Source of the DNA: Candidatus Bathyarchaeota archaeon
Lineage (GTDB): Archaea; Thermoproteota; Bathyarchaeia; Bathyarchaeales; DTEX01
Reading direction: 5' to 3'
Assembly (NCBI GenBank): GCA_963714275.1
Contig: CAVQNT010000007.1
Span: forward strand, 32,001 to 96,000
DNA: 64,000 nucleotides
Shown: piece after piece, positions 11,204 through 32,202 of the stretch
Layout of the letters: the number at the start of each line of letters is the position of its first letter
Numbering within the stretch: position 1 is the stretch's first letter
Made by a program: the position numbers and the translations under genes
Notes under the pieces: generated by a model
Told to the model about the DNA's origin: nothing
The model's input: only the letters and a program-made list of their open reading frames with translations
Databases searched by the model: none

Positions 11204-11226
11204 TCAAGGATTATCAATACGACTTT

Positions 11227-12006: not shown

Positions 12007-12063
12007 CTTTCTTCGACAACCTTTTAGAACAACTAAAATAAATAAGTCTTCTCGGGAACAAAT

Positions 12064-12648
12064 TTGCCGACAACGTGGTTCGAGAAACTCGGAATCATCC
12101 GCCACTACGACAAAATGGCAAACATCTACGATTCCTTATACCGAGAAGAACAAGAACTAAAGATTAAACAAATACTAAGGCATATGGCTGTCCACGATTC
12201 GGACTTAACTTTGGATGAAGGTTGTGGTACAGGTTTCCTTTTTGAACACATCTACAAACAAGGTGCTCACCTCGTCGGGGTAGATTTATCTAAAGGGCTC
12301 TTGAGGATTGCATTAGCCCACGTTAGGCAAGCTGGAACAAGGAATGTTTCGCTGGTTCGGGCGGATGTTGACCATTTGCCCTTCAAAGAACGTGTGTTTG
12401 ACAAGGTCTTTGCGTTGACTCTTCTCCAAGACTCTTCGGACCTAGACGTGACACTAAAAGAAATAATAAGGACGACAAAAGTGGATTCGATGCTTGCGGT
12501 TACGGGGCTCAAGAAAGTTTTCACGGAAGAGCGGTTCAAACAGGCTTTAACGAAAGAAGGCTTGGAAATCAATATTTTGTTGACGCCCGAACAAGTGAAA
12601 GATTTTATCGCTGTTTGTCGGATGCACGTAGAAGCAAAGATTAAATAA
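12064..12648 (+). CDS. Class I SAM-dependent methyltransferase
   Basis: LDEGCGTG motif I, VGVDLS, ADVDHLPF. Confidence 0.85.
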   Translation: MPTTWFEKLGIIRHYDKMANIYDSLYREEQELKIKQILRHMAVHDSDLTLDEGCGTGFLFEHIYKQGAHLVGVDLSKGLLRIALAHVRQAGTRNVSLVRADVDHLPFKERVFDKVFALTLLQDSSDLDVTLKEIIRTTKVDSMLAVTGLKKVFTEERFKQALTKEGLEINILLTPEQVKDFIAVCRMHVEAKIK

Positions 12649-13325
12649 TGGCTTGGCGAAGTAGTAACTCTGGTGAAATACAGTGCCGACTCACGGAAGC
12701 CTGTCTAAAGCAGGAAAAGTCCGTTCGCAGACTCCGAAAATAGAGGCTACTCCGAAAACTAGGAAATCGCCAAAAATAAAGTATCGGAGAAATTTCGAAA
12801 AAAGAATCATGCTGCAAAGAAAACTGGGACAAAACTGGGGCGCGCGCGCGCGCTAGCAAAACCCAAAACAAGACGTCATTGCAAAATTTTTAGTTCAAAA
12901 TCAAAAATATTACTATTTAACCAACTAAAAGTATTAAAAAATACACTTTTATGAAAGATACATCACTTGAGGTTTCTTTTTCTTTGCTTTCTGGATTTTT
13001 ATCGCCAAATATAAAGGACGCTCACAAAAACTCTTCTGGTTACCACCTTCATCATTATTAGCGTCTTTCTCTTTTTGGGGCAAAAGTCTCACTATCTTGA
13101 TTTAGATACTGAGGCTATTTATATTTGTTTAATTCATGGAAAGAGAGCGAGGAATCCCGACTTCTAATAATGTTTGCCCAACCCCAAACCATTGCTCATA
13201 AGGCTTTTCTAGGGGCAGTTAATCGAGCGAGAAGTGTAGGTGACAACAAGGGCTGAGTAAGTGAAGGTATTAGAGGAATAAATTTAAGTTTCTTGTTACT
13301 ATTCAAGATTATGGGGAGTAATTAA

Positions 13326-13794
13326 TTGTTTAGGAAAAAGAAAACAAGAAGCCCATTCAAAGCCTCAATGCCTATAGATAATCCAGACATTAAATTAGTG
13401 GAAGCTCGATACAAAGGTAAACCATTTTTCTTAGCAGTGGGAGTATCTAAACAGAGAGAAGTAAAGGGTTCAGGGCAACTTAGTATGAACGAAGGAGTAA
13501 AAGGAGGTTACCAGACCCAGAAGGATTTAGATTGGGAGGTTCACTATAATATGGGTGCTCTGCCTTCAGGCTTCATGTCAGCTCAGAAGACTTAAAGGCT
13601 TAATGGCTGGAACGGTTTCTGTTGTAAGTGGAAGCACAGGCGTCTATTCTGGAAAATTTTCAGAAACAAACTCAGAAAGTCTTAGTAATATTGAAAATAA
13701 ATTTTCCAACTTTAGAGTTGAGGACATCAATAGCCTTCTTGAATATTTAGGTAGTATTAGTTTGGCAATAAAGAAGAAGAAGAAAAAAGATTAA
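13326..13794 (+). CDS. Hypothetical protein (probably split by an indel)
   Basis: Overlapping ORFs 13326-13595 and 13555-13794, preceded by GGGAG. Confidence 0.45.
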
Positions 13795-14510
13795 AATTTA
13801 ATCCCCAAACCCAAACCGACCTAGTCTTATACGCTAGTGAACCAAAAAAAAATTCTTTACCACCACAACCAGGACAAATTAATGTATCAACTATTTCTGA
13901 CATTCTTTTCTACCATAATCTCCCTTCTTGCTCAGGAATTATCACACCACCGATTGAAGCGTTTACGTCAATACCTTGTGGAATATTCGGTCCACCCTCT
14001 CCAAAGATTACAGCAAAATCTATGATAATGGCTTTATTTGCTGAATTATGAATTGTTATGTTTTGGATTTTCGTTTCACCAGCGTATGCAGTAATTGAAA
14101 ACGTGGATGGTCTTACAGAGATTGGTTCATTAATTGTGAGTGTTCCTTGAACCTGAAAAATGTCCCATGCTCTTACACCCCAATACTGAACAATGATACA
14201 AGTAGTGCTACCAAGATTACTTTCTTATTTGTTTGCATTTTTCATTTCTCCTATTTTTTCCGTGTACTCTTTCTTCCCTTCAATTAGGGACAGGCGGTTT
14301 CACGCCTCCAACAGAGTTTACTGCTAATGCTATAAACCTTTATTATAATTGAACGTATAAGGGGTTATGAAAGATAATTAAGAAAGACAAATCTATTAAA
14401 TAATATCAGTTAAATTTTGTGTGTGAGTAGTATGTAGTGTGTAGTGTAGAGAACACATATAACAGAACATAACGTAACGGCATTAGGTTTGGGTTTGGGA
14501 TTAAAATTTA
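13792..14510. repeat. Segment bounded by about 25-bp imperfect inverted repeats
   Basis: taaaatttaatccccaaacccaaacc (13792-13817) and taggtttgggtttgggattaaaattta (14484-14510). Confidence 0.7.
13909..14245 (-). CDS. Small secreted beta-rich protein (frameshifted, not in the ORF track; coordinates approximate)
   Basis: Read by hand: hydrophobic leader (VILVALLVSLFSIG), then RAWDIFQVQGTLTINEPISVRPSTFSITAYAGETKIQNITIHNSAN. Confidence 0.45.
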
Positions 14511-14622
14511 ATGCACACATAATTTAGGCAAATTAGGCAATTTAGGTGATTTTTTAGGAAGAATCTTAGAATAAACTAAAATTTATATACTGAATGATAT
14601 AATAATATTAAATTGAGGATAA

Positions 14623-15438
14623 TTGCCAAAAGCAGAGAAAAATCTCAAACAAATCTATCATCTGATGGTCGAAAAGTTGAGGCAGTTGAGTAAAGGCGAT
14701 GCTTTTGATAAAACGATGGAAGAAAATAAGAGTTTTAACTACTTAGAAAGGAAGGATAGTTATTTCTTTGAGAAGATGACGCAAGCAGTTTTTGAGAGTG
14801 GTTTGCGTGCTTGGGCATGGGAACCTCACACAAGAGGCATAAAAAAAGCGTTTTGTTATTTCGATGTAAGAAAGGTCGCTGGTTTTGATGATAAGGATGT
14901 AGATAGAATTCTTGTTAGTAATAACATGATTCGTAGGAAACCAAAGATTGAGGCAGTCGTCTATAATGCGGGAAAGATAGTTGAGATAAGCGAGAAGCAT
15001 AATGGTTTTTGGAAATGGATAGACAGCAAAGTGATTAGAAAAGGAGATTTGATCTTTCCAAAGCCTGATTTAATTGAAGAGATCCAGAAAACGTTCAAAT
15101 GGCTGACAGGCATAAACGCTTACTATTTCCTAAAGCTTTGCGGTGTTGATGTTGTTAAGCCAGACTTGAATGTTCGCAGGATATTGTTTAGGCTTGGATT
15201 GATAGAAAGTGACAAAAACAATAAGAAAACGTGGAATCAGATACAAGAGGTTGGAAGAAAGATTTCAAAAGCAACTGGAGAGAGGATAATAAACATTGAT
15301 TATGTCATCTATCTCTATGGTAGTGGTGGAGATCAGTTTTTTGATCACCCAATCTGCACTAAAAAGCCGAAGTGCGAAGAGTGCCCTTTAACAAGTTTTT
15401 GTTATTGGTATAGGAAGGGAAGATTGAAAGTAGGCTAG
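14623..15438 (+). CDS. DNA glycosylase-like protein: 3-methyladenine glycosylase I-like N-terminus plus C-terminal HhH-GPD/Fe-S segment
   Basis: FEKMTQAVFESGL.W, FDVRKVA, MIRRKPKIEAVVYNA; KPDLNVRRILFRLG; CTKKPKCEECPLTSFC. Confidence 0.75.
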   Translation: MPKAEKNLKQIYHLMVEKLRQLSKGDAFDKTMEENKSFNYLERKDSYFFEKMTQAVFESGLRAWAWEPHTRGIKKAFCYFDVRKVAGFDDKDVDRILVSNNMIRRKPKIEAVVYNAGKIVEISEKHNGFWKWIDSKVIRKGDLIFPKPDLIEEIQKTFKWLTGINAYYFLKLCGVDVVKPDLNVRRILFRLGLIESDKNNKKTWNQIQEVGRKISKATGERIINIDYVIYLYGSGGDQFFDHPICTKKPKCEECPLTSFCYWYRKGRLKVG

Positions 15439-15547
15439 CCAGTCAAGTAATATAACTCGAATTTAAATCCATTTTATAAAAAATTAGTAGCGAAGCCTTT
15501 CTAAATTCGTGCTACCACGGTTATTATAGGGGTCTGAGCAGCTTTTT

Positions 15548-17363
15548 TCAGGCTGGATATAAGCTTGCTAAACACAATGCAGCGATTAATACTGAAAGCA
15601 ATATTGTGATTGCCACGATTGCGTTCTGGGATATAACCAGTTCAGGAATTAAGAATATTAAAACAAATGCCAACCCAATCGGTAGCCCAAACAGCGCACC
15701 AGTGAAGACAAGCAGGAACGTCTGAAATAATAGAATCTTTAATATGGTTCCGGGTTTTGTTCCTAACGCACGCATGATGCCCAAGTCTCTCTGCTGACCT
15801 GACACTGAAAGCATAAGGAAACCCATAAGCGAAGTGACAGCGCTTATGAAAGACAAAAGCGAAAGAGAAAGAAGCAGAGACCAAATTTGGCTTATGAAGG
15901 TTATCTGTCTATTTAAAGACTGATCTAAATCAACCATAATCAAGCCTGAGTTAGAAATTACAGCTTCTATTCCTTGAAGTATGCTTGAACGGTTTGAATG
16001 TTCAACCTGCACTAGAAGAATATTATAACCTGAGTGATGAACGATGGAGGACAATCCCTCATAGGGCATGTAGACTACCATCCCGTTATTAAGAGGGTCC
16101 AAACAAACCCCAACAGTATGAAACTCGTGATCGAAGGCTTTGAAGTTTTTGTTGAAAAGGGTCTTCAAAAAATGTTGCAGTGAAAGGGGTCTCCCAATAA
16201 CACGTTGTTCAAGTCTTTATCTTGGATTTTCTCACCGAGAAGCAACCAATCATTTACAAGATCCCCAACATGAACACCCATGATAATAGCGTCACCTTGT
16301 CTTTGGTCTCCAATTACTATGTATTGGCCGGGATTATTAGGATCTGGGGCAATATATTGAGCCTCTTTAACAGAGGTCTCTAAAATCAACCGGGGCGGCT
16401 TCTGATGACTCCGCTGATTTCTTGAATCGCAGAGATAACAGAATCCGGAATCGCATAACTATCATTAAGGTAGTTAAAAGACTCAGATTGGCTTGGCTGA
16501 AGGAACCTATCAAGTAATTGTTCATAATGTTCAGCCATTTCAGTCTTAGTCACAAGAACCACATCTGTACCAACCGCCCTCTGAACGTAGCTAGCGTGGT
16601 TTCTTCAGCAACTATTCCGCCGACGACGATTACAGTCATCAAAGCAATGACTACACCAAGACAGGTAATTGATTGAATAGTCATAGACCATCTTCTACGT
16701 AGAGTCCTAGAAGCAATGCGTACAGTAAGACTCTTGCCAAACAAGAAAGGCAATTTAAAAGTTGACTGTTGAGCAGCCATCACATCTGAAACTTGAGACA
16801 ACGCCTCAGCAGGTTTAATACGAGCTACCCGTCCAGTCAGCCGCAAGCCTAGAATAAAAGAAAATCCAGCGAACATAATAAAAATCAGCAAAATCATCTG
16901 TACATTGAGAGGACCAACTAAGAGATGAAAACCTAAAAGGTTCATCACGCCTGTCGAGACAAAACTTAAGGCAATCCCAACAAAAGTCCCGATCAGGCAG
17001 CCTGCAAGGACGAGAATCAAAAACTCCGATGCGAAATGCTGAAAAACAGCATCAGTTAGGCATCCGACGGCTTTCATGATGCCAATGTCACGAGTCCGAT
17101 TCTGAAGTAGCCACAGACATTAGGAAATAAACAACAAGAACCCCAGTAACACAGTCAAGTATGACCACAAGCAGGATGAACCTGGAAAAAATTACTGAAA
17201 ATCCAACTGTTAACCCACTCGTTGAAAAACCTGCAACCTCAACGCCGAGGTTTTCACCGAAAAGAACAAGTGAAATAGTCACCGAAACGCAGACAGCAAG
17301 GCTAACGATTGTTAATGTTGTCTGAAACTTTCTTCTCGCCAACTCTTTAAGTGGAAACCCCAA
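15548..17363 (-). CDS. ABC transporter permease, FtsX/MacB family (split by several indels)
   Basis: RDIGIMKAVG and RDLGIMRALG FtsX motifs, multiple TM segments. Confidence 0.8.
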
Positions 17364-17372
17364 CCATCCCGC

Positions 17373-18052
17373 CTACTCCTCGGAAACAATTTTTCCGTCT
17401 GACATGACAAGCGTCCGGTCCGCTAACTTCAGGACCCTTTCATCATGCGTGACAACAACCACTGTCTTCTTCTCTTTCAATCCCCTCAAAATGTCAATAA
17501 CCTTCAAGCCTGTGTCCAAATCAAGGTTTCCCGTAGGCTCATCCGCTAACAAAATAAGCGGATCATTAGCAAGCGCCCGAGCGAAAGCTGCCCGTTGCTG
17601 TTCGCCTCCGCTGAGTGGGACGGAAAATGGTCAACTCTACCAGTTAAGCCCACAAGTTTCAGCAGTTCATCTGATTTTTGCTCAATCTGGCTGTCGTCCC
17701 ACCCGGTGAAATGCATGGGAAACGCGAGATTCTCCTTTGCAGTAAGGGTCGAAATTAGGTTGTACGACTGAAAAACGTATCCGATGTTGGTGCACCGGAA
17801 AGTCGCAAGAAAATACTCATCATACTTAACCAGATCATGCCCGAGGACAGAGATCTCGCCTGATGTTAGTTTGTCTAAACCGCCAATAATGTTTAGAAGA
17901 GTCGTTTTTCCCGCCCCAGATGGACCTTGGACAACAATGAATTCGCGAGTCAAAATGGTCAGGTCGACGTCTTTGAGCGCCTCAACTACGGTTCCGCCAA
18001 TATTGTACTCTTTCCGCATGGATAAGGCAACAACAACCTTTTCATTTTCCAT
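17373..18052 (-). CDS. ABC transporter ATP-binding protein, LolD/MacB type (split by an indel)
   Basis: GPSGAGKT, LSGGEQQR, ADEPTGNLD, VVTHD. Confidence 0.9.
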
Positions 18053-18151
18053 AGTCAGTAACGCTTCGAAGCGATTTAACTAGTTATCTAGCGCGCGCGT
18101 AGATCTCTTTGCAATGACTTCTATTAATTCGAATTCGTCTGAGTTAGTGAG

Positions 18152-18814
18152 TTACCTAAGATTAACAAGAGAAATGCAACGACTCAATAAAAATATATTC
18201 TTCCCCGTTACAAAGTATTCCACAGTCATTCGTTCTCTCACGGTATCAACTACTCCCATTTTCTTGAAACGACTCATCTGCCAACTTAAAAGTCTGAGAA
18301 GATATGCCAAGTTCAGAAGTTAACGATTTATGCGAAATTGATTGGTTCTTGGATAAAACTAAAAGAATCCTTCCCAGCGTTTTGTGTCTAAGGAGAGAAA
18401 TCAATCTCATTTCAGACTCTTTAAACCTTCCTGACTGGAAAAATCTCTTGTATCTATTGTCATCATAGACCGAAATCAATTCAGATTTTGTGAGAAGTTT
18501 AAGATGATATTGCACAACGCCGACAGAAAAATCTCAGTTTTCCGCATATGTCCCTGAAGCAGGTCCCAGGATTATCTTCAATGAAGGTGTAGATTTCTAA
18601 CCTCGTTGACTGGTTAAGTAATGACTGATTTTGATAGAAACTTGTGCGGGCTATATCCTGTGTGAAAAAAGTGTATTGGCTGAATACTCTCTGTGAGTGC
18701 AATGGGTGTAGGAAGCGAATGTTTCGAGTCGCTCTGAGAGCAAACCATTTCAGTGAGAAATAGAAATAGGACTAGGGTGCCAAGGGACACTGACAAAATT
18801 TGTCTTCGCTTCAA
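18152..18814 (-). CDS. Double winged-helix transcriptional regulator with hydrophobic N-terminus (split by indels)
   Basis: RLEIYTFIEDNPGTCFRDI, VQYHL, ILLVLSKNQSISHKSLTSELGIS. Confidence 0.7.
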
Positions 18815-18870
18815 ATCACTTCTGCCCCTATCGAAAAATCTAATTAGATTTCCCAGTATTTATCATCTTT

Positions 18871-18903
18871 TGTAAACGATTGTACTAGTGTAAACGATTG
18901 TAC
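18871..18903. promoter_or_regulatory. Tandem 15-bp direct repeat in a divergent promoter (putative operator)
   Basis: tgtaaacgattgtac at 18871-18885 and 18889-18903. Confidence 0.65.
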
Positions 18904-18965
18904 CATAAAATTTATTCTTCTTCCCCATTAACATGATTTAAAGGTATATTTAACAAGGGTTAAAT

Positions 18966-19895
18966 ATGGAAAGTCATTTCCGTCGTCCTATTTTTGAAGG
19001 ATGGAAAAAAGGGAAACTGCTTGTTCCCTTCATCGTTGTTGCCCTTTCTTGGTCCTTATCGTTAATCGTACGGTTTGTTTTTGGTCTTGATGGGATAGGG
19101 CTTTCTGTCGGCGAAGGAATCGATGAGATTGCCAAGGTATGTTTGGCGATTGGGTTAATCTGGCTGTTTCTAAGAAACGTTCCGCCCTCTCCTTACAAAA
19201 AGGGATTCTCCAAGAGGTCCGCCTTAATTGATCTGTCAATTGCAGGAATAGACTGTGCGATCACGGTTCTCTATGGTTTTTTCTTTTATTCTTCTCTTGA
19301 TTATCATTATTATAGTCTTGGTTTTTTCCTCCTTGGAATGGAATATGCGATCATATTATTGTTCACAATCAGACATTACGGAAAGAAAGAGTTAAAGCCC
19401 TTTTTGAAGGACTTAGGACTGCGCACGCCATCAGTAAGAATCATAGTGTGCTGGGTTGCAACAATTGTCATCTTTTTTTCCCCTTATCTACTTAAGTGCA
19501 GGTGCAAACTTTCAGGCGTTTCTTAATGATTATCATAACACTCTCTTCTGGATGCCGAATATTCTGTATATGATCTTTGCCTGGCTTGGTGCTGAAGAGT
19601 TTTTTTCAGAGTCTATTTGCAGACAAGACTTGAGAAGATAATGCCAGTTGGATTGGCAATCATAATTCAATCATTTCTATTCAGTATAATCCATATTCCT
19701 GGCAACGCAGCAGTTTTGGGTTGGGGATGGCGTGTTGTTCCCCATTTGGCGAACACGTTACTCCTAACTAATGGCTTGATTGGAGGATACTTGTGGCATA
19801 GAACGAAGAGTCTGCCAATTCTAATCCTTTACCATTGGGCAATATATCCTCTCATGCCACTCATCTTCTTTCCATCCTATTATTTGCCTAGTTAA
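18966..19895 (+). CDS. CPBP (CAAX/Abi) intramembrane metalloprotease (split by indels)
   Basis: AEEFFFR, FSIIH, RTKSL...H motifs; multiple TM segments. Confidence 0.8.
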
Positions 19896-19968
19896 CATAA
19901 TTATTTGAATCCTTGACATTTATTGATGACAATAGTAGCTAGATAGTGAGCTGGCTTTTCAATTTAAC

Positions 19969-20265
19969 TCATAAAACTTCTCTAAATTCTAACCAGGATT
20001 TTATTACTCTAACTGGGAATTCTCCATTTAAAACATACATGGTTCCTTCTTTTTTTATAAAATCACTTTCTTTCAATAGGTTTAGGACAGCGTAGTATTG
20101 ATTTAGTGAGCAGTTGAGTCTGGAGAAGGTCTGTTCCCTAACCTCTTTACTTGTTTCTAAGCCTCCATCTTTAATCTCATTTGCCAACGTCCTTCCTATG
20201 CGTATGTAGTCTGAGGACTTTAACGCCATTTCTATAATTTTCGGTAATTCCCTCATATTCACCAC
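19969..20265 (-). CDS. Small winged-helix-like protein
   Basis: CSLNQYYAVLNLLKESDFIKKEGTMYVL wHTH pattern; upstream GAGGTG. Confidence 0.6.
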   Translation of the reverse strand: MVNMRELPKIIEMALKSSDYIRIGRTLANEIKDGGLETSKEVREQTFSRLNCSLNQYYAVLNLLKESDFIKKEGTMYVLNGEFPVRVIKSWLEFREVL

Positions 20266-20558
20266 CTCAATTTTGGTTATAGCAAAAATGCATCATCTAT
20301 ACCCTAATTTTCCATTTTTCATTTTTGACTTAGGAACAAAATGAGGACTATTCCGTCAAAGAAATTATATCAAACGACCCTTTAGATTCCTGAATAACAG
20401 CATTTGAGTTTATACCAAAATAGTCGCTTTTGTCGTTTTTGGTTCTACCTTTTAGCCTCCGTATAGTAGTTTACGATTTTAATGGTTGTATAGGACAGTA
20501 AAAGAGTCTAAAAGAGCGGTTGAGTAAATGATTAATTCATTTGTCATGTGGTCACCAG

Positions 20559-20869
20559 TTACTTTTGTCTCTTAGGGTGGGGAATTTCTGGTTCAGGCTT
20601 TGCTTCTTTTTCGCTTTCTGCTTGTGAACTGCTCATTTGCTCTGCCACTGGTGCTACTTCACCGAAATAGTCTTCCTTAGCCTCAACTATATCAGAAGGC
20701 ATCTCTTCTTTAGAAAGTTTAACATTTTCTGCTTCACCTTCCGCCTCTAATCTCTTTGCCTTTCTTTGTTCTGCCTGTTTTTCATTTTTTCCTGATATTC
20801 TTGCAATTCCTTAGGTGGACGTTGTTCAGTCTGTCTCTGTTTCAAAACTGACTTTCCTAACTTACCCAT
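20559..20869 (-). CDS. Charged low-complexity hypothetical protein (frameshifted)
   Basis: Read by hand: MGKLGKSVLKQRQ...EKAKRLEAEGEAE...EKEAKPEPEIPHPKRQK; upstream GGAGGTG. Confidence 0.5.
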
Positions 20870-20938
20870 AACATTCACCTCCTGCAACCTTATTCCCACT
20901 ACTCTGTTTCACATACATCACCTCAAAAGATTGGTTAG

Positions 20939-21214
20939 TTACTGTAGGGCTTGGCTCAAAACTCTTCTGGTTGCTATGGCAACGTCTTCTGCTGTAATTG
21001 TCTCCCGTTCCTTAAAGCTTGGAGCATGAGGAGAACTTTGAGCAATGAGAATAGACTCTTTTGCCACCTTCATGGATGCTTCGTTTAAAGTCCTAATCAT
21101 TTCCTCAACACCTTCTCTGCTTACTCTCTTCGCTCCTGCTTTAGTTAAAAGTCTTCGGACTGCCAAAAATGGGAAACCTTCTCTCCTATGCTTGTCTACT
21201 CTTCTAACTTCCAA
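20939..21214 (-). CDS. Element-encoded archaeal histone-fold protein
   Basis: FPFLAVRRLLTKAGAKRVSREG...KVAKESILIA...RETITAEDVAIA aligns with the host histone at 10121-10336. Confidence 0.8.
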   Translation of the reverse strand: MEVRRVDKHRREGFPFLAVRRLLTKAGAKRVSREGVEEMIRTLNEASMKVAKESILIAQSSPHAPSFKERETITAEDVAIATRRVLSQALQ

Positions 21215-22060
21215 TCAAATCCCTCGCTTCAATCTCACTAATTCTCGCACCGAAATTGTCAAACACTCTTTTTACATGAGTGATATGTTCGCCTTGTCCT
21301 TTGACACGAACAACCCCGTTCTTCAATAGCAATTGTATTGCTCTTTCAAAATCAAATCCATATTTCTTTATTACATTCCTAAAATTGTAACTGCTACTCA
21401 ACTCCTCCAACGAAATCCACTTGAACTCTGGAAGCGCTTTTAAAAATGCTTTCAAAGAGTAATACTCGTACCAAACCCTCAGTTCTTTGAGCGTCTTTTT
21501 GACTCGTCCTCTTGTCTTGCTGTCCGTCTCAAGTCGTAATGAGTGACACGTTTATTGAACGCCTCATGTTTACTTATCTGCACAACAGGAAAATCAATCT
21601 TCTTGAGTTTGTCGAATGTAAACCATAAACTCCCAACACTAATGCCTAATGCTTCGCTTAATTCAGTAAAAGCGCTATACCCATGTTCCTCAAGGTATAA
21701 AACAACCCGAGCCACAAAAGGATTTCTGGCGACATCCTTAATCACATGACTGTTAGAAAATGGAATTATGTCCTTTAGTTCTTTCGCAGGTTTAATGTCT
21801 TGAACTCGCAACTTAACGTCTTCAACTATTACTTTCTCTTCTGCCTTAGTTTCTTCTATCATTGCACCTAAATTATCTTCAGGAAGGTCAAAATCCGCCA
21901 AGTCATCTTGAGTTTCATTAGGCATTAATATTTGGTTCTCCTGTCCTTCTGCAACATCTACTACCTTATTCGTTGAAGGCTTATCGTTAATATTCTCCTT
22001 AACTTGCTTTGTTCTACTCTGCAAACCGAACTCAAACTTCAGACCTTTCACCTTTCCCAC
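21204..22060 (-). CDS. Winged-helix protein with acidic N-terminus (probably one gene split by an indel)
   Basis: VARVVLYLEEHGYSAFTELSEALGISVGSLWFTFDKL; second wHTH-like part in 21204-21455. Confidence 0.6.
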
Positions 22061-22539
22061 TCATTTACTAAAACTATAAAATATTATATTGATTGTAAGA
22101 TTGTCCTTACTTATTGTTAGTGCCTTCATCTGCTCTCAGTCCTCAAATCCACCTACCTATATTATATTATTAGAGTGTGCGAAATTACGATAGTTTTGGT
22201 ATATACCAATTATAAATTAATGGTGAGGAAGTATATAAATTTTAGGTAGCATTTGGTAGCATTGGCAACATAGTGATATTGAAAGCATAAGCCATCTTAA
22301 GGTTAAAATCAACACGTCTTAATCTACCATATTATTAATATTATTAAAACTACCACCACTGTTTCTCCGAGACAACAAAAATAGTGTAGCTGTTCCTCAG
22401 ACGGCATCAAAACTGTTTTACTTGCTCTAACTGCTATTTGCTTTAAATGCCAAAGTGCTATCTGTAAAATTAAGAATATAAATTTAATATATGAAAAAAA
22501 ACGCCACATTAAGGATTTTGTGAGATTATGTCTATAATG

Positions 22540-22880
22540 ATTATATATTTATGCAAGAGACAGCAAGACATACCCTTAGTCAAAACCTGACTAAATTAAC
22601 TAAAAAAAATAAATGGAAATTTCGAGTAAAACGTAACAAACATTAATAATCTTCACACAAATGGTCTTTTAATTTTCTCTTTCTTATAGCAGAACTGATT
22701 TATTTTTTTCATTTATTTATTTTTTTAGTTAATTTATTTTTTTTATTTGAGATTTGAAAGAGGTTTATTATTAAAAATTTATGCAGAATACCTTAGTCAG
22801 ATCTTAAATAAATTCAATAAAAAAAATAAAAAAAATAAAGGGAGATTTTAGGATTTAAGATTAATTTAATCACTTAGATC
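22540..22880. repeat. Very AT-rich region with direct and inverted repeats (candidate element origin)
   Basis: tacc(c)ttagtca at about 22571 and 22789; taaattaactaaaaaaa(a)taaat at 22592 with an inverted copy at about 22712-22735. Confidence 0.5.
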
Positions 22881-22945
22881 TGTATGATTTTCCCTTTCTA
22901 AAGTGCTTAACAGAGTTCGTAGACAATCCAGATTTCCTTTAAAGT

Positions 22946-25055
22946 CTATGAAAAGGGCGTTTTGTTCTCCTCGCCTTGTAACAGAAAGCCAAAGTGTTGT
23001 AAGCTTTGATTGAGTCTTCTTTGCCCGCTTGGAGTTTCTGGAATATTTTGTAGAACGCTAGAGAAGTAAGTTATAGGCTTTAGATGTTCGTTAAGTCCAT
23101 TGTAAGTCGTTGTTAATTCTGAAAGAGGCATGATATTTTTGGCATCATTGGATTATTGTTGGTGAAAGCACATGCTCCTAGAACAATGGCTTTCCACTTT
23201 CCGCTAGGCAAATTCTTATACTGATTCAAAAGCCACAATTCATGAGGAACACTGCTAATAGTGGTTAACATTTGCGTAATGGAGTTTATGATTAAATTGC
23301 AGATATGTGTAACATCTTCCTCCGCATCCTGAAGAATTTTGTTGATGTCATAGTCTCCTAAGTAAACTTCTTTCAGATTGTCTAATATAGCATGCTTCAA
23401 TGCTTTTCCTCTTATGTGCCTGAAAGCACCCTTGAAACTTAAACAATATTCTCTGATGTCAGGGAAAGAGGCAGTAGCAGAGTGGAGTCGATGTAAGATT
23501 TGATTACATCGGAAAAAGTTTCAGGAGGAATGTCCTTATCTAACCACGTTTGCACTTGTCTATTAGGAAAGATTGTACTTTGTACTCTAGTATTTACAAC
23601 TGATATTATATGGGTGTAGACAAGCTCATTTTTGTCTATAGTTTCATCGTTCAATGGCTCTATGTCTGTGCCTTGACTGTCTTTTTCTTTCTTAGCAATG
23701 TCTAGTTTTAGTAAGATTAGAAGTAGTCCTAATCTTGAAGATACGGGTCCTGATACAATTGCATGCCGTGATATATATTCAGCAAAGTATTGAGCAAGTT
23801 GGTTACGGTCAACAGCGACAGGATTATCTGCATCAGAAATTTCTGTCTGAGGAAGGTTAAGCAAGCAAGTTACAGAAGCAGTTGTCCTTGCTACCACTGG
23901 TCCTTTGCCCTTCCCTGCTCTTTGAACTCCTTTCTCTTTTATCTCTAATAGATTTCTTATAGCTTCTAGTATATAGTCTTGTACACTGTCTAACATCGAG
24001 AGTTCCGTATTGTCCGTCAAAATTCCTATATTTTCAGCATCAGCAGTCGCAAACCCGACTAATCCTGCTCTTGAAGCATCACTGAACCACACTCCACCGC
24101 TAATTCTTGCTATTTTCATCGCAAAAGTAGTTTTTCCCAATTTTGTAGGAGAAAGCAAGTCTGTATGGTCTTGATACTTCATTATTATCTCAGGAGTTTT
24201 TTCGTCCTCATAGGGATTGTCGTGAAAATTTATCACTTGAGATTCTAAGGCATAAATCATGTCAGCATTTTTGTACCACCCTTCGTAACAAAAGTCATGT
24301 CTGATTCTTTCAAAGTCCCAGCTCTGTATATTGTTGATTTCTTGGGGAGTCAATGGTTCAACAATTTTGAAGAGAAAAGGTGTGTTTAAGTGTTTATTAA
24401 GTATGTTTGTCCATATTTCATAAGGTTCAAGTGAGCGAGACTGAAACTTTCCATTTTCATCTGGTTCCTTTACCGTTGTTACTATGTTGCGTTCCTTAGT
24501 TATCTCAAAGATTACTTTTGATTCAGGTTCGGGAGTAGGAAATGCCAATGCATTTTCGGGTCCAAGAAAAAGTTCGTCTCGTGTAAGTGGCATTATTCTA
24601 TGCCAGTCACCAGTTAGCCTATACGTAGACTTCGTTAATATATAGTTTAAGGGAGTTCCAACGTCACATCTATATTTGTAAATGCTGTACTGATAGACAT
24701 AATTGTTAGAGTTCCAAGGTTTGTGGTTGTAGTATAGAGTGAAGTCTCTCAAGTTTACTTTTTTCTTTGCTGTTATACCAGAATAGTCAGGAGGCAGGTC
24801 TTGCAGACCAGGTCGTTCAGGAGGCAAACTAAGTCCTGACACTTTTTTCAGCCTCCTTTTGAGAGAGTACGTCAGGTTTTTGTCTACTATCCACAACATG
24901 CTTGAGCAGGGTTTTTGATAGATAATGTGTACATTCTTGTTTCTTTGGATGAGTTTCTTTAAATCCAGAAAATCCCTATATTTGCCTTTTAGTACTAATG
25001 CAAAGAATATTGGTTCGTCTAGGAAATTTTCTATCTCTTTATCCAATGTTATCAC
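22946..25055 (-). CDS. Divergent MCM-like AAA+ helicase (C-terminus split by indels)
   Basis: SPTKLGKT, ASRAGLVG, GIL...MLDSVQD, LLEIKEKG...AGKG, TASVTCLLN and SSRLGLL occur in MCM motif order. Confidence 0.7.
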
Positions 25056-25698
25056 TCTCTGATTTATTTAATTCTGAAATCTCACAGGGACACCTACTTG
25101 CGTAGGCGTTAACGTGGCGTTAAGCCACAATTTTCAGATTATTAATTTTTTGGTTTCTGACTCTTCACCTTTTAAAGGTGGATTTTAAATCCCTCTACAT
25201 ATGGGGCATTCAGAGGTCTTTAATCACAATTTAAATTTGTGACCGTGATTTCTATTTCCTTATTTATATAATAACAGTGATCCTATATTTAAATTTTATT
25301 TTTTTTTACTAAAAGTTGTGAATATAACAAAAAATTTATATATCTTAACATCATATAAAACTCAGCTAGGATGTGGTAATCTCTTGAGACAAAGACCAAA
25401 AAGGAAGCGTAAGACAAGGCTTGAAAAACTAGCAGAAAAATACCCAGCCAAGAAATGGGGAAACTTGGAGAAGTTCGTTCATCCTGAGGAATAGAAGCGC
25501 ACGCGCTAATTCAAATTGGAACCCGCATAAAATGGAGAAGTATGTGCTATCGCAGAATTTTTAGATGAGAATTTGAAAGGAATCAATCTCAATGGATTGA
25601 AGTTAGACAGCAATGTCCTCGAGTTCAGTTTTAGAAGGCATTTCAAAGAGAAAGAAGATGATTCTCTTAATCTGGAATGATAAATCCTAAATCTTCAA

Positions 25699-26974
25699 TC
25701 AATCGTTCTGCCTTATTTGCTTCTTTTTTGTAGACTTTGGTAGTTTGAACTTTCCTCTTTCTTCAGGTGTCATTTCTCTTGTGCCTTCAAGTATCTTCTT
25801 TAGACCTTCTTCAGTATGTAACCTCACGAATCTTTCGAAGTCTGCTCTTAAATCTGCATAATTCTTCTTTTGCTCTTCTAGGTCCGTCTTAAGGGTTGTA
25901 ATCTGTTCTGTGACTTCAGAGGGAATAACTGCCTTTTCAATTACTTTCTCAATTAACGGAGTTAGGTAGTTTTCCACATTAGCATATATCTGCCTCAAAT
26001 TATCTTTCTGAACCTGTCCTTGAAAATAAGTTTCCTCCATCCCTTCCAATGTATGTCCCATCATCCAGTAGACAATGTTTTTGTTGGCGTTATGTCCTTG
26101 CAATTGACTATCAAAATACTTTCTAAAACAGTGTACTCTAACCCTGCCATGTTCCCCGTCTAATCTGAGGCTTGTCTTTTTCGCTAAATCTTTCATCATA
26201 CTATTCCATTGCTGTTCAGATAACTTATTCCCTTCTTGACCTGTAAAGATATATTGCTCTCTTAACCCATCATCTTTTACTCTAGCTCTCAGATCAGCTT
26301 TTAACAACTCCACGCCATATTTGCCGAGAAACGTAAAACGCCATCCTATCTCCCTGCCCTCTGTCTTTTCTGGAAGGTAGTCAATAGCCATAGGAACTTT
26401 TAAGGCATCTAACTTCCCTAAATCAAACTCCTTTAAATCCTTCACCTTCAGCTTTTGAACGTCACCTATCCTCATGCCTGTTTGTGCTAACCAAACAATT
26501 CTTCAGCTTCTCTTTCATATCACCTGCGTCAACTATCGCTTTATAATCACTTTCAGATAACTCGACATCATGAAATTTCCTTTGTTTCGACTTTCTATAC
26601 TTTGTATCTTCTTTGCAAAGTGGGTATCCCCAATAGCTATAAAATGACTTGACTATCAGTCTTGAAGTTGCAATAGTTTTGGGTGCAAGTCTTTTCTCCT
26701 CTTCTATTTGCTGAAACACACGCTGAAATAACCTTTCTGATTCTTTCTTTCTTTGAGCAAAATCCATTAATAATTCGCCGTCAATCTGCTTATACTCAGA
26801 CATTCTATCTTCAATCAATTGTCTTGGAGCCTTACCAGCATATTTACAAAACTGTTTTATCTCTCTGAGATACAATGGTCTGCTTTCATTAGACTTCCCT
26901 AGTAGCCATTGAATAACTGCATCTTGGTCTGCTTTTTCTGTAAATGCCTCTTTTACCTTTTCTTCATGACTCAT
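25699..26974 (-). CDS. Tyrosine recombinase/integrase with C-terminal coiled coil (split by an indel)
   Basis: GMRIGD, HCFRK, MGH, ETY catalytic residues; SAM-like N-terminal domain in 26462-26974. Confidence 0.9.
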
Positions 26975-27099
26975 TTACTTCTTTTCCTCAAAAATATAAT
27001 CTTAGAGGTCTTATTTAAATTTTTTTATTATAAAAGATGGGAAAATTACTATTTTCATTCACCTGAAAGCCAAAAATCTAGATAAGTCCATGACGGTTG

Positions 27100-27180
27100 C
27101 GGTATGTCACACAAATCAGATAGCCTCCCGTAAACAGCGTTTATTGTTCAAAATTGAAACTCGGTTGTTGAACAAATCAT
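27100..27180 (-). repeat. 60-bp-period repeat, locus A (2 units)
   Basis: Reverse complement: tgatttgttcaacaaccgagtttcaattttgaacaa...ggctatctgatttgtgtgaca; period 61. Confidence 0.75.
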
Positions 27181-27232
27181 ACTAAGTAGAAACACTTGAA
27201 TCCACATATAAAAAGAAAAAAGTGTTGGGACT

Positions 27233-28432
27233 CTAAGCGGGAATTGTCACCCACTTGCTCTTTTCTGACGATTCCTCGATTGCGGACAGTATTTCTTGGC
27301 ATTTCAGCCCGTCGTAGAAGGTTGCACCCAGCGGAGCCACTGACTTGTCGTTCACTATGCAATCTACCAAGTGGTGGATTTCGTGCGCGAAAGTATGTTC
27401 CCAGCCGATAATGTGCCCCTGCGGCCACCAGTGCTCCATGAACGGGTGAACGCTTTCGGTGACCAGAATGTTGCGGAAGCCCATTCTGTCATCCTGGTCC
27501 TTCTTTGAGTAAACTTCCAGTTCGTTCAGCCGTTCAAGGTTGAAGCTGATTGACCCTTCTGTCCCGTGAACCTCAACCCTCTGATAGTTCTTTCTTCCTG
27601 CACAGAAGCGGGAACTTTCAAGGCTACCGACCGCGTTGTTCCTGAACTTGACCATGGCGATGAACATGTCGTCCACGTCAACCTTGCCCTTCTTTTCTGG
27701 ATTATCCTGCAACTGGCGTTCCTTGATGAAGGTCTCAGTTAATCCGCAAATTGAGGCGAAGTCTCCCACGAGAAACCTAGACAAGTCCACGATGTGTGCT
27801 CCTAGGTCGCCTAATGCTCCTGATCCAGCGACGCTTTTCCTCAGCCTCCAAACCAAAGGAAACGAGGGATCCATAATCCACTCCTGAAGGTAAACGGCTC
27901 TGAACTGAAGGACTTTGCCGATGTAGCCTTCGTCAATGAGGTTCCTCGCCAGCCTCAACGCGGGAACAAAACGGTAATTAAAAGCTGTCATGTGCTTTAC
28001 GCCCGCCTTCTCAGCAGCCTCATACATCGCCCTCGCTTCCCTGAGGGTTCCAGCAAGTGGCTTCTCGCAAATCACGTTCTTTCCAGCTTCGACTGCCGCT
28101 ATGCAGGGTTCAGAATGCAAGTTGTTTGGCAAACAGTTGTCGACAAGCTGAATCCTCTTGTCTTTGACGACATCCTTCCAGTTAGTGTAGTAGGTTTCAA
28201 ACCCATATCTTTTTGCCAGCTTCACTAAAGCCTCCTCCGTTCTTCCGCAGAGAGCTATCAAGCGCGGTCTCGCAGGAGGCGGATAGAAGAACACTGGCAT
28301 CTTTTTGTAACCGTTTGTATGAGCTTTGCCCATGAAGGCGTAGCCTAACACGCCGACGCTGATGTCTTTAACTTCTTTAGGTTCCTTCGAAACCTTGCCC
28401 ATCGTCACAAATCCGACTTCTTTCTTCGACAC
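27233..28432 (-). CDS. Gfo/Idh/MocA family oxidoreductase
   Basis: GVLGYAFMGKAH, CEKP, GALGDLGAH, WWPQGHIIGWEH. Confidence 0.92.
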   Translation of the reverse strand: MSKKEVGFVTMGKVSKEPKEVKDISVGVLGYAFMGKAHTNGYKKMPVFFYPPPARPRLIALCGRTEEALVKLAKRYGFETYYTNWKDVVKDKRIQLVDNCLPNNLHSEPCIAAVEAGKNVICEKPLAGTLREARAMYEAAEKAGVKHMTAFNYRFVPALRLARNLIDEGYIGKVLQFRAVYLQEWIMDPSFPLVWRLRKSVAGSGALGDLGAHIVDLSRFLVGDFASICGLTETFIKERQLQDNPEKKGKVDVDDMFIAMVKFRNNAVGSLESSRFCAGRKNYQRVEVHGTEGSISFNLERLNELEVYSKKDQDDRMGFRNILVTESVHPFMEHWWPQGHIIGWEHTFAHEIHHLVDCIVNDKSVAPLGATFYDGLKCQEILSAIEESSEKSKWVTIPA

Positions 28433-28435
28433 TTT

Positions 28436-29406
28436 TCACCACCACACCTGCTTAAGGGGAGCCTTGATTATTAATGACTTTAGGAAAGCTATGCATTTTT
28501 CGCACCCGTCTTCGCGGCTCATCACGGGGTCTTCGTGCTCGTAACTCAGGACAAAATCATAGTGGACCTCAAGCAGCGCGGTTATTACCCTTTTCCATTC
28601 AACATCGCCCCAGCCTACGACCCTGAACCTGAACCCTCTGCCCTGCCTCATCCACCCGCCCGTTGGTATAACGCCTGACGTTGCGACGTTCTCCTTCACG
28701 ATCTCTGCATCCTTGGCATGCGCATGATAGATTCTATCCCCGAACTTCTTGATGAAAACAACAGGGTCAATTCCCTGCCAGACGAAGTGACTCGGGTCGA
28801 AGTTAACCCCGAACTCTTTTCTACCATCAACCGCCTTTATCGCCTGCTCCGTCGTTTCAACGTTGTACGCCTGTTCCTGCGGGTGAACCTCGTGGGCAAA
28901 CTTAATCCCATGCGCAGCAAACACGTCGAAAATGGGGTTCCAACGCTCAGCGAACATCTTGAAACCTTCCTCGTAAATCTTCTCGTAGGCGGGTGGAAAA
29001 ATGTACCATGCTCCCCAATACGGTGCTCCGATGAACCCGTTCACGACGCTAACATCAAGCGCAGCTGCAGTTCAGCAGTTTTCTTCATGCGTTCCGTGCC
29101 ATATTTTACTTTTTCTTCCGGTGTGCCTTTGAAAAAGTCGTCTGTTGAAGCGCCGTGAGGCCCGAGCACAAGTTGCCCTTCAAGGTGGTTGCTGATTCCA
29201 GAAATTGAAAGCCCATATTTTTCGACTGTTTTTTTAAGTTTCGTGGCACCGCCGCTTAGGACGTTGTCGAGGTCGAGGTGAGTGCTTCCCTTCCATGCTG
29301 CGAGTTCAACGCTTTCGTAGCCGAGCTTTGAAACATATTCTAACACTTTTTCCAGTTTAAGTTCATTGTACAGAACGGTGAAGATACCTATCTTCAAACG
29401 AGTCAA
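28436..29406 (-). CDS. Sugar phosphate isomerase/epimerase, xylose isomerase-like TIM barrel (split by an indel)
   Basis: HEVHP, NFDPSH, HAHAKD, SYEHED. Confidence 0.88.
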
Positions 29407-29724: not shown

Positions 29725-30005
29725 CCTCGAAGCACCTCAACATTTTCCAATATTTTCCAGCCTTCAGTATTTATCATCTTCGCTGAAAACCAAAAATCCT
29801 CTTATTGAATAAACTTTTAAAGACATTTTATTTTCTTGGTCATGTTCACAAAAAATCATGTATTATTGACCTTCATAATGGATAATACTAACCAAAATTG
29901 TGAATAGGTAGAACCGTTGATACGCAATTAAGCTTATAAAACGGATTTCGCAAAGTATCTGAAGACATAATACATTTAAGCGCGGAACGTATTGAAGGCG
30001 GTATC

Positions 30006-32089
30006 ATGTATGAGCTGTGGCTTGTCGCGCCATTATCTGCTCTAGTCTCAATCGTAGTTGGACTCTACTTCTACAATTATGTTAACAAACAGGACCCAGG
30101 AACCGAAAAAATGCAGGAAATCGCCTCTGCAATTAGGGAAGGGGCAAGAACATTTCTAAACAGGGAATACAAAACATTGGCAGTGTTCGTGTCCATAGTC
30201 GCTGTTTTCATGTTCATTTTTCTTCCTTCACCCATATGGTCAAATCCTGACCCCTTAAAAAATATAGCAATAGTTACAGCGTATGTTTTCGGATCAGTCT
30301 GTTCAGCAACAGCTGGCTTCCTCGGAATGAACATATCAACAAAAGCGAACACAAGGGCAGCCAGCGCAGCGAGAGAAGGACTGAACAAAGCCTTCACAAT
30401 AGGTTTCCGCGGTGGAGCAGTCATGGGAATGGCAGTCGTAGGTCTCGGCTTGCTCGGAGTAAGCGTCGTGTATTGGGCAACAGGCGACCCCGAAGTCATA
30501 TTGGGATTCAGCTTCGGCGCAAGTTCCCTTGCCCTTTTCGCTAAGGCTGGCGGTGGCATATACACAAAGACTGCTGACATAAGCGCAGACTTGGTTGGAA
30601 AGGTGGAGCTGAACATTCCTGAGGACGACCCGAGAAACCCAGCTGTAATTGCTGACAACGTTGGCGACAATGTGGGCGATGTTGCAGGCATGGGAGCAGA
30701 CCTTTTCGACTCATACGTGGCAAGTATCGTCGCAGTCATGATTCTTGGACAAGCCTTGAACCTGTTGCCGGGCTCCCAAGGAATATACCTTCAAATCCCC
30801 CTAGTGTTCGCTGGCCAAGGCATCCTGTCAGCTGATTGTAGGAGCTTTGACAGTAAGGGTAGGAAGCGGGGGCAACCCAGGCAAAGCTTTGAACACAGGA
30901 ACATACGTTACATGCATAATTTTTGTGGGCTTAACATACGTGACATCGGTCTTCATCCAGTATAACCTCAGAATTTGGGGAGCCTCAACAGTCGGTCTAA
31001 TTGCGGGAGTCATCATAGGCGTAACCTCGGACTACTTTACCTCAGAGGACAAGGCGCCAGTCCAAAAAACAGCGGAAGCAGCACAAACAGGAGCAGCCAT
31101 AAACATCATAACAGGATTCTCCTACGGTCTACGCAGCGTTCTACCACCACTAGTGGGAATTGCAGGCGCAGCAGTCGTAGCATACAGACTATGTGAGCCA
31201 TTAGGCACCCAATATGCACTCTACGGTATATCTATGGCAGCATTGGGAATGCTGTCAATCGTAGGCTTAGTGGTTTCAAACGACGCCTATGGTCCCATAG
31301 TTGACAACTCCAAGGGAATAGCAGAGCAGGGAGGACTCGGTGAAGAAGTCATAAACGTAACAGACGAGCTGGACGCAGCAGGAAACACTGCAAAGGCAAT
31401 AACGAAAGGATTCGCTATAGGTGCAGCGGGATTAACCGTGATTGCCCTTTTCAGCTGCATTCCAAGAAATAATCAGAAACGAAACAGGCATAACAGTCAG
31501 CTTCGACCTGATGAACCCACTCGTTCTGTTAGGCGCCTTTATAGGAACTGCCATACCCGCTGTTTTTTCAGCGATGCTTATGCTTGGAGTTGGAAGAAAC
31601 GCTTTCAGAATGATTGAGGAAATCAGAAGGCAATTTAGGGAAATTCCGGGACTCAGAGAAGGAAAAGAAGGAGTAAAACCTGAGTATAGCCGGTGCGTTG
31701 ACATCGCAACCAAAGGCGCATTACAAGAGCTTCTACCAGCAAGCGTCATGGCCATCGCTGCAACATTGATTGTTGGGTTTGTCGGCGGAGTCGAAGCGTT
31801 AGGTGGATACCTCGCTGGCAGCATTTTCTCAGGACTACTATTCGCGTTGCTTATGGCTAACGCTGGTGGCTTATGGGACAACGCCAAGAAACTGATAGAG
31901 TCCGGAGCGTATGGCGGAAAAGGGTCAGAAGCTCACAAAGCAGCAGTCATAGGCGACACTGTTGGCGACCCATTCAAGGATACTGCTGGTCCATCGCTTA
32001 ACACGCTGATTACTGTGATGTCGCTTGTATCTTCATTAATTGCCATGTTGGTTTTCAGGTATAACCTACTAACGCTTTTAGGCTGGTAA
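30006..32089 (+). CDS. hppA: Membrane-bound ion-translocating pyrophosphatase (split by indels)
   Basis: GGIYTKTADISADLVGKVE, EDDPRNP, DNVGDNVGD, DAYGPIVDN, GDTVGDPFKD. Confidence 0.95.
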
Positions 32090-32202
32090 AAAGCGAGTAA
32101 CATTTCAAACATTCACCATCCCAATACTTTTTAGAAAACCTTATCTAAGTCACACTCGCATATTCTTCGAGAACAAAAAATCTAGATTCCCAAAGATTCC
32201 AC

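Follow-up and report, generated by a model that had tools for sequence, protein, structure and literature searches.

Cryptic integrated elements (CIEs) that bear an MCM (minichromosome maintenance) gene are known in Thaumarchaeota, for example NitGar-E6 and NitEve-E3, and the role proposed for MCM on archaeal elements is the recruitment of host replication proteins (PMC6563490; this and the other published systems are cited here from their main-text descriptions). A survey of Bathyarchaeia viruses describes an MCM-like helicase in a tailed virus, and the word 'histone' occurs 0 times in its main text. Histones have been reported on mobile or viral DNA of archaea: the 58-kb plasmid of Methanocaldococcus jannaschii (M. 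jannaschii; NC_001732.1) has a gene, MJECL29, that is annotated 'histone family protein' and is described as a less abundant canonical histone paralogue (PMC10516927), Borgs encode histones (bioRxiv 10.1101/2024.11.05.622173), and HMf-like histones occur in contigs of Caudoviricetes (PMC13681535). No report of a histone on a small integrative MCM element was found in open-access article text (without supplements). The subject of the present analysis is a 64,000-nt stretch of Candidatus Bathyarchaeota archaeon (assembly GCA_963714275.1, contig CAVQNT010000007.1, positions 32,001 to 96,000; hereafter the window), which probably contains, in the chromosome of this uncultivated archaeon, a plasmid-like mobile element of about 14.1 kb (12919-27044) that has integrated site-specifically and has a tyrosine integrase, a divergent MCM-like helicase and a variant histone.

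The window belongs to a genome (G000) of 2.64 Mb in ten contigs, and was compared with the closest genome (G002), which is about 88% identical at the nucleotide level and represents a different species. A single contig of G002 aligns to window positions 30513-27165 and then to 12841-10149, with 1.36 kb separating the two blocks. At base level, the order in G002 is the left flank of the window, then ACTATTT, then the window sequence to the right of 27054 (TCATTCACCTGAAAGCC...), with the positions that match 12918 and 27055 joined directly. Both of these points are marked in the window by the same 10-mer, ATTACTATTT, on the plus strand: the left copy (12909-12918) lies downstream of rpS30e, where homology to G002 switches, and the right copy (27045-27054) is followed by the sequence that continues in G002. 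Both copies are candidate attachment (att) cores. Because G002 joins 12918 to 27055 and the 10-mer is present at both points, the inserted DNA is delimited as 12919 to 27044/27054, in the spacer downstream of rpS30e. Relative to G002, this block of 14.1 kb is inserted DNA with a copy of a 10-bp direct repeat at either end. A first-pass annotation of this DNA had proposed an integrated element at 19900-27000; the empty site in a related genome, with its precise junction and direct repeat, bears out the integration and corrects the borders, and in place of the compact, minimal unit of 7 kb then proposed, the insert is about 14.1 kb long, with some 7 kb of presumed cargo.

The 10-mer occurs exactly twice in the window and five times in the whole genome (0.32 copies per 64 kb are expected from base composition). 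With up to one mismatch, 12 occurrences were counted in the window against 7.0 expected, among them those at 15119, 16313, 18758, 21454, 21924 and 25248. The repeat finder returned no att-like repeat of 12 nt or more, and the 10-mer surfaced only through the comparison with G002. An element that targets a tRNA gene was ruled out, as the surroundings of the insert contain no tRNA and 11000-29000 gives no match to Rfam. All 7 genomes of the genus have an orthologue of the right-flank oxidoreductase gene (27233-28432), and the 538-aa (amino acid) helicase-like protein of the insert was found in one of 41 genomes, the window's own, and in none of the 40 relatives. Across 20001-27000 the guanine-plus-cytosine (GC) content is 0.287-0.392, versus 0.404-0.444 in the ten contigs of the genome, and an uninterrupted series of co-oriented open reading frames (ORFs), all on the minus strand, extends from 19969 to 26974. 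The first-pass description of an AT-rich, co-oriented gene block of about 7 kb therefore stands, and the components that it listed (integrase, MCM-like ATPase, AT-rich repeats, a protein resembling winged helix-turn-helix (wHTH) proteins, histone and charged ORFs) are all present.

Insertions may recur in the spacer downstream of rpS30e. G002 has a 1.36-kb segment of its own in the same spacer (L019 = G002:C88, 3294-4651), which contains a 186-aa coiled-coil-like ORF and a small membrane ORF and is bracketed by the similar short sequences AAATCCAGATAG and AAATCAGATAG, about 30 bp apart in the window. A (GC)7 run is located at window positions 12840-12853, directly after rpS30e, where G002 has a 16-bp gap.

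The tyrosine integrase is encoded on the minus strand at 25699-26974, in two overlapping ORFs (26462-26974 and 25699-26475), and its start codon is 70 bp from the right repeat. It matches Pfam PF00589 Phage_integrase (E 1.5e-10, 41.6 bits versus a cut-off of 27.1) and PHROG 216 (E 1.6e-10). Candidates for the R...HxxR...H/W...Y residues, picked by eye in a gene that carries one frame change, are found in MRIGD, HCFRKYF, MMGH and EETYF. The frame change is located near 26486-26502, where the frame of a paralogue runs across the junction. An integrase of the Sulfolobus spindle-shaped virus (SSV) type was considered and rejected: both parts of the gene are adjacent at the right end, and the repeat lies outside the gene rather than within it. 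Peptide patterns from the C-terminal part of the integrase recovered no relative in IMG/VR, and the same part has no relative at E <=1e-15 in 300 other genomes of the class.

Outside the window, the locus G000:C7:144191-149334 (L028 8191-13334) contains the gene of another integrase, which shares 50-59% identity with that of the element and is likewise frame-broken. A complete Cas1 gene (Pfam Cas_Cas1, E 7.8e-46) is located some 3 kb away, and the interval contains a zinc-ribbon ORF and small ORFs without an assignment; this Cas1-linked locus has no further gene in common with the element.

The MCM-like AAA+ helicase gene occupies 22861-25055 on the minus strand, in at least three frames. Its main ORF (23439-25055) encodes the 538-aa protein and is followed by ORFs of 95 aa (23113-23400) and 61 aa (22946-23131). 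Because residues 19-453, 446-567 and 572-629 of an intact homologue (P0001, 658 aa, 46% identical) map across the three frames, these ORFs are regarded as parts of a single gene of about 2.2 kb, with apparent frame changes near 23495, 23135 and 22950. The 538-aa protein belongs to no family in Pfam, PHROGs, NCBIfam or PADLOC; it has no match in a word-indexed search of 5.8 billion clusters and no phmmer match among PDB sequences. A HMMER search of 1.84 billion representatives gave 65 homologues at E <=0.001, 24 at 1e-10 and 11 at 1e-30, most of them 600-1000 aa long, and no Pfam family was found in any of the ten homologues tested. A search of the whole genome with the Pfam MCM model PF00493 returned only the host MCM, on C5. 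Scans with helicase peptide patterns were negative both in IMG/VR and in a set of 185,579 species represented by one genome each. The 50,697 phage records and 72,556 plasmid records searched contain no relative of the helicase either, in keeping with the first-pass suggestion that the element may be undescribed.

In an alignment of 39 sequences, K241 (TKxGKT), N333 (NP), R373 (GSR) and two Gly residues are invariant and an Asp is nearly so. By motif context and by HMMER alignment to MCM4, the first three correspond to the Walker A lysine, the sensor-1 asparagine and the arginine finger; the Walker B Asp is invariant in the 11 closest sequences and nearly invariant in all 39. The family profile placed MCM4 chains at the top of a search against PDB, at non-significant values (E 0.29-1.3). 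A single-sequence AlphaFold2 model of the window's protein was unusable (predicted local distance difference test (pLDDT) 30.8), and a model of P0001 made with an alignment reached a pLDDT of 89.9 and a predicted template modelling score of 0.84. The best Foldseek matches of the P0001 model were all MCM subunits (E 1.3e-8). VIA-align gave a best Z of 21.8 (root mean square deviation (rmsd) 4.4, 313 residues aligned) and, for SsoMCM (6mii_B), a Z of 21.2 (rmsd 5.4, 364 residues, model 31-523 versus chain 122-602), and the best 50 structural matches listed are all MCM2-9 or archaeal MCM. The N-terminal domain has no zinc-binding motif; the first ~170 residues of P0001 include a single Cys. By its modelled fold, an N-terminal oligonucleotide/oligosaccharide-binding (OB) domain followed by AAA+, and by motif order, the protein is of MCM type, and the label 'MCM-like' that the gene had been given is upheld by the intact homologue, which is predicted to fold as MCM with Z of 21-22.

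The first ~80 codons of the MCM-like ORF match a small protein that relatives encode on its own (P0028, 71 aa, 42% identical), and in two related loci (L030 and L031) the MCM-like gene is immediately preceded by a distinct small ORF; this stretch of the ORF is either a gene fusion or a frame artefact.

The variant histone (91 aa; 20939-21214, minus strand) matches Pfam CBFD_NFYB_HMF (23.9 bits versus a cut-off of 21.4) and NCBIfam archaea_histone (E 1e-10; 41.9 bits, short of the cut-off of 50). The upstream gene ends 11 nt into the histone gene, and because of this overlap the histone gene is considered a member of the operon that starts after the AT-rich region described below. The protein has an 11-residue basic N-terminal extension, a 7-residue insertion in loop L2, and Ser in place of HMfB H49. 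Seven relatives with 65-96% identity were found in metagenome data, and all of those that are full-length have the N-terminal extension (MEVRRVDKYRREG-like) and the 7-residue L2 insertion; homologues with 65-79% identity are among those in which the two features occur. The family profile matches HMfB (1a7w) with E 8e-8, and the L2 insertion is visible in the alignment. R10 and R19 anchor the histone dimer in the minor groove of DNA, G16 allows stacking, and H49-D59 with L46 and L62 form the dimer-dimer interface; archaeal histones with tails usually also have interface substitutions (PMC6136690). In an alignment to HMfB that is somewhat uncertain beside the 7-residue insertion, R10, G16, R19, T54 and D59 are retained and K53 is Glu; at the dimer-dimer interface, H49 is Ser (Asn or Gly in two relatives), and L46 and L62 are Ile. 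Two conserved peptide patterns of the histone recovered no relative in IMG/VR and none in the one-genome-per-species contigs. No relative is present in the phage records, and the only match in the plasmid records is MJECL29, at 32% identity (E 7e-3).

The genome of the window encodes one canonical histone (82.7 bits; window 10121-10336) in addition to the variant (40.8 bits). In 30 other genomes of the family, one canonical histone was found in 25 and a second histone in none, and the variant is the sole second histone among the 31 genomes. The remaining weak histone matches in genomes of the family score 17-24 bits; one of 24 bits at a contig end of G002 was rejected, being the host histone cut by the contig break. 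The variant and the host histone are predicted to form a handshake heterodimer (interface score ipSAE 0.80, versus 0.00 for the best control) with ~150 contacts along all three helices, in which runs agree on at least 95% of contacts and the partner has a pLDDT of at least 76; an ipSAE of 0.80 is reached by 58 of 80 solved complexes and by 2 of 110 mismatched pairs. Since solved structures include many histone dimers, the model indicates compatibility and not binding, and may mirror likeness to solved histone dimers.

The helicase gene is followed, in the direction of transcription, by an AT-rich non-coding repeat region of about 800 bp (22061-22860), which is a candidate replication origin and promoter region. 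The GC content of window 22001-23000 is 0.287. The region contains A/T tracts, a 40-nt direct repeat (at 22574 and 22791, 83% identical) and a 17-nt perfect inverted repeat (22592/22720). The first gene after it encodes a 193-aa probable winged-helix DNA-binding protein (21479-22060, minus strand), with a match to Pfam HTH_24 that is below the cut-off (E 0.0046); its neighbours in the atlas are wHTH clusters with scores of up to 0.88, which serve as leads only. An 83-aa protein (21204-21455, minus strand) resembles the C-terminal half of a 208-aa wHTH protein encoded at 2243-2869 of the related locus L032 (phmmer E 9.9e-6; BLASTP 37.5% identity over 48 aa), and the 208-aa protein also matches, more weakly, the 193-aa protein (E 0.0021). 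Two small, highly charged putative ORFs of 47 and 50 aa (20559-20702 and 20747-20899, minus strand), known from the ORF list only, match no family at a meaningful E-value in Pfam or PHROGs. The last gene of the series, which the first-pass annotation had listed as another wHTH gene, encodes a 98-aa protein (19969-20265, minus strand) that is kept downstream of the MCM-like gene in related elements. It has no family match in Pfam, PHROGs or NCBIfam, and matches ORFs of L030, L031 and L032 by hhalign (probability 86%, E 5e-6, 79 columns) and an ORF of L030 (6023-6355) by phmmer (E 5.8e-5).

Peptide patterns of the helicase identified five metagenome loci, three of them with context (L030, L031 and L032). 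L030 contains a tyrosine integrase, an RFC-like AAA+ gene, a small ORF, the MCM-like gene, the homologue of the 98-aa protein and an Eco57I-type restriction-modification gene; in L031 and L032 the homologue of the 98-aa protein also comes after the helicase gene, that of L031 being weak. As judged from sequence comparison, the backbone of the family is the MCM-like gene with wHTH-type genes, and the integrase where the contig reaches it. The RFC small-subunit-like AAA+ protein of L030 (1703-2629; AAA, DNA_pol3_delta2 and RFC lid domains) is encoded between the integrase and the MCM-like gene, and L030 is itself a mobile element with a helicase and a clamp-loader-like gene.

A mechanism may be proposed for the life cycle of the element. 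The integrase would recombine a circular form with the chromosomal spacer downstream of rpS30e at the 10-bp core. Episomal replication would start at the AT-rich repeat region beside the helicase gene, where the highly divergent, presumably hexameric MCM-type helicase may recruit the host replisome, and the wHTH proteins would regulate the operon. The variant histone may dimerise with itself or with the host's sole histone. Keeping the DNA-anchoring residues without the His of the His49-Asp59 bond, it would make weaker dimer-dimer contacts and shorter or looser complexes. Such altered complexes could form on the AT-rich DNA of the element, or on host DNA when mixed with the host histone, and might package the element, silence it, or prevent it from interfering with host chromatin.

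A more far-reaching idea, which is tentative and on balance doubtful, is that the tailed, interface-defective histone is a chromatin tool that pairs with the host histone and caps or loosens its polymers, and that together with the divergent MCM it defines an undescribed family of Bathyarchaeia episomes. If this is true, a small AT-rich replicon sets up its own chromatin state or blunts silencing by the host histone. Bacterial plasmids carry nucleoid-protein 'stealth' genes, and the element would then have an archaeal, histone-based counterpart of these.

Several observations weigh against the reading of the insert as a single mobile element of this kind. The empty site is seen in one genome only (G002), as the two flanks lie apart in the five further genomes of the genus, where this region is rearranged; the 14-kb difference could stem from several events or a two-step history; and the direct repeat is only 10 bp long. 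The sole public DNA run (0.07 word share) gave, on the element, contigs of 151-217 nt at a depth of 2-3 with no joints, and is uninformative on circles, empty sites and coverage. The Pfam model PF00493 matches neither the window's protein nor any of 10 homologues. The Walker B Glu is replaced, by Asn in 10 of the 11 closest sequences and by Ser in the window, with DE in distant homologues, and this change could leave an ATPase activity that is impaired or unusual. Genuine frame breaks would mean a dead element. The replication origin, the heterodimer and any effect on chromatin are steps that we infer. Finally, no histone was found in any of the five related loci (BLAST and profile search of ORFs of at least 45 aa), three of which have enough context. 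The integrase-MCM-histone set, for which the first-pass annotation had suggested searching elsewhere, was thus not seen again, and because the related loci encode no histone, this gene is regarded as an accessory of the window's lineage and not a hallmark of the family.

The left half of the insert is presumably cargo. Its leftmost part (12919-14530) contains repeats and small ORFs (13326-13595 and 13555-13794) without a convincing Pfam family, and 13912-14414 is 84% identical to G000:C6:62774-63286. Repeats within 13772-14530 recur as near-exact copies of 32-45 nt on C7 and C2, and also in other genomes of the family. A DNA glycosylase (14623-15438, plus strand) has a methyladenine glycosylase-like domain and an EndoIII-type iron-sulfur motif (Pfam Adenine_glyco, E 2.4e-14; EndIII_4Fe-2S, E 4.5e-4); its weak match to OGG (E 2.4e-6) is the sole PADLOC match. 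Five ORFs (15548-18052, minus strand) encode an ATP-binding cassette (ABC) transporter with an FtsX-type permease and an ATPase (Pfam FtsX, ABC_tran), a diverged second copy with 79% nucleotide identity to the chromosomal G000:C5:21716-24255 and 68-77% identity to loci in four other genomes of the genus. A small wHTH protein (18246-18515, minus strand; Pfam HTH_24, E 6.7e-5, 22.8 bits versus a cut-off of 21.9) may be cargo or a regulator. Two ORFs (18966-19895, plus strand) encode a CPBP/Rce1-like intramembrane protease, with a match to Pfam Rce1-like (E 9.3e-8) in the second; the first (18966-19526) was found in one of seven genomes of the genus, the window's own.

This composition could also be explained by two adjacent islands, in which the integrase/MCM element is the 7-kb block at 19969-27044 and the left part (12919-19900) is an older or separate variable region at a hotspot. 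The mixed gene orientation of the left half, its host-like transporter paralogue, its GC content of up to 0.468 and its repeats in common with other variable sites all fit such a history, as does the segment that G002 carries at the same spacer, which indicates that the site is variable. Neither the exact search of the window nor that allowing one mismatch, however, found a third copy of ATTACTATTT near 19900; the 22-nt right junction sequence occurs once, and the G002 junction leads from 12918 to 27055 in one step. Two islands are therefore considered unlikely.

The frame breaks bear on a different alternative, that of a decaying remnant. The integrase gene has one frame change and the helicase gene at least two, and if these are real, the element would be immobile, with the histone alone under selection and hence domesticated; the Ser at the second Walker B position of the window's helicase is in line with such decay. 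The same kind of break is present, however, in conserved host genes of the window, namely those of an ABC transporter, an H+-pyrophosphatase and a sugar-isomerase-like protein, the last of which is a single 346-aa frame in G002. Between the breaks, the reading frames of the element are open and well conserved in comparison with homologues at 41-48% identity. Because host genes are split too, and because the two integrase paralogues are broken at different places, the breaks are probably assembly errors, and a remnant is quite unlikely.

An alternative in which the integrated element is a defective or cryptic archaeal provirus, for example of a small spindle-shaped or pleomorphic virus, would have its histone package viral DNA and its structural genes beyond recognition. 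Many archaeal capsid proteins do escape profile searches, several ORFs of the insert have no assigned family in Pfam or PHROGs, one ORF of 61 aa (22324-22509) has two hydrophobic stretches, and HMf-like histones have been reported in the contigs of tailed viruses mentioned above. Against this, no capsid, portal, terminase or other virion family was detected by Pfam or PHROGs among 20 ORFs, and the remark of the first-pass annotation that no capsid, terminase or conjugation genes are recognised holds for these ORFs; no relative was recovered from IMG/VR with the helicase, histone or integrase patterns, nor from the phage records; and the 61-aa ORF is situated in non-coding-looking DNA of 29% GC, where composition alone yields hydrophobic codons. 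A provirus is very unlikely on this evidence. The further suggestion of a satellite reliant on a helper virus for its spread, which small size, an integrase and replication gene of its own and the lack of recognised structural genes might evoke, is scarcely credible, since no packaging signal, capsid-remodelling gene, helper-derepression gene or link to a helper is evident in the data, and the gene content fits an integrative plasmid equally well.

A second presence/absence difference was noted beside the element. The segment at 29755-32128, with the H+-pyrophosphatase gene in three frames, is not present at this position in G001, G003 and G005, in which synteny skips from ~29754 to 32129 with about 200 bp between; G002 enters the segment and continues until its contig ends.

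Read as a single integrated, plasmid-like element, the locus has implications beyond its own annotation. A mobile element that delivers a second, altered histone amounts to a natural experiment on histone variants in archaeal chromatin, and two small recombinant proteins would suffice for a direct test of the question that it raises. The MCM-like family, with 65 representatives, no Pfam model and a confidently predicted MCM fold, widens the range of MCM proteins known from mobile elements, and a profile built from it could help to find such elements. For annotation, the borders of the element are corrected, and frame breaks here should not be equated with decay without checking at the level of reads.

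Compared with the CIEs of PMC6563490, the element has the defining features described in the main text of that paper, namely an integrase, att repeats, absence from a related genome and no hallmarks of viruses or conjugation, and it resembles them also in its MCM-type protein, wHTH proteins, variable cargo and size below 20 kb. It differs from them in that its helicase is missed by the Pfam MCM model, its target is an intergenic spacer with a 10-bp core, and it has a histone gene; neither 'histone' nor 'chromatin' appears in the main text of PMC6563490. A second integrative element with a very divergent MCM-fold helicase is the staphylococcal cassette chromosome SCCmec, with its Cch (Mir-Sanchis et al. 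2016, cited in PMC6563490), although SCCmec is bacterial and no Cch chain is among the best 50 structural matches listed. With MJECL29, the element has in common a histone gene on an archaeal extrachromosomal replicon. MJECL29, however, is of canonical length, without a tail or loop insertion, and belongs to a large non-integrated plasmid of a host with several histones, whereas the variant is on a small integrated element in a lineage of hosts with one histone. The histones of Caudoviricetes and Borgs are likewise archaeal-type histones on mobile or viral DNA of archaea, but their carriers, as described in the main texts, are tailed viruses or giant elements. In its basic N-terminal extension and H49 substitution the variant is similar to the histones of Heimdallarchaeota LC_3 (HA) and Bathyarchaeota B23, which are described in PMC6136690 as chromosomal and for which that description does not mention a 7-residue L2 insertion. 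The first-pass view that a chromatin protein is unusual in this setting needs qualifying, as the M. jannaschii plasmid, Borgs and Caudoviricetes are precedents for histones on archaeal mobile DNA. The locus as a whole is of a known kind, an archaeal cryptic integrated element or integrative plasmid with MCM, to which it adds three features not described before: the element family itself, an MCM-like family without a model, and a tailed, loop-extended histone on a small integrating replicon in a host with a single histone of its own.

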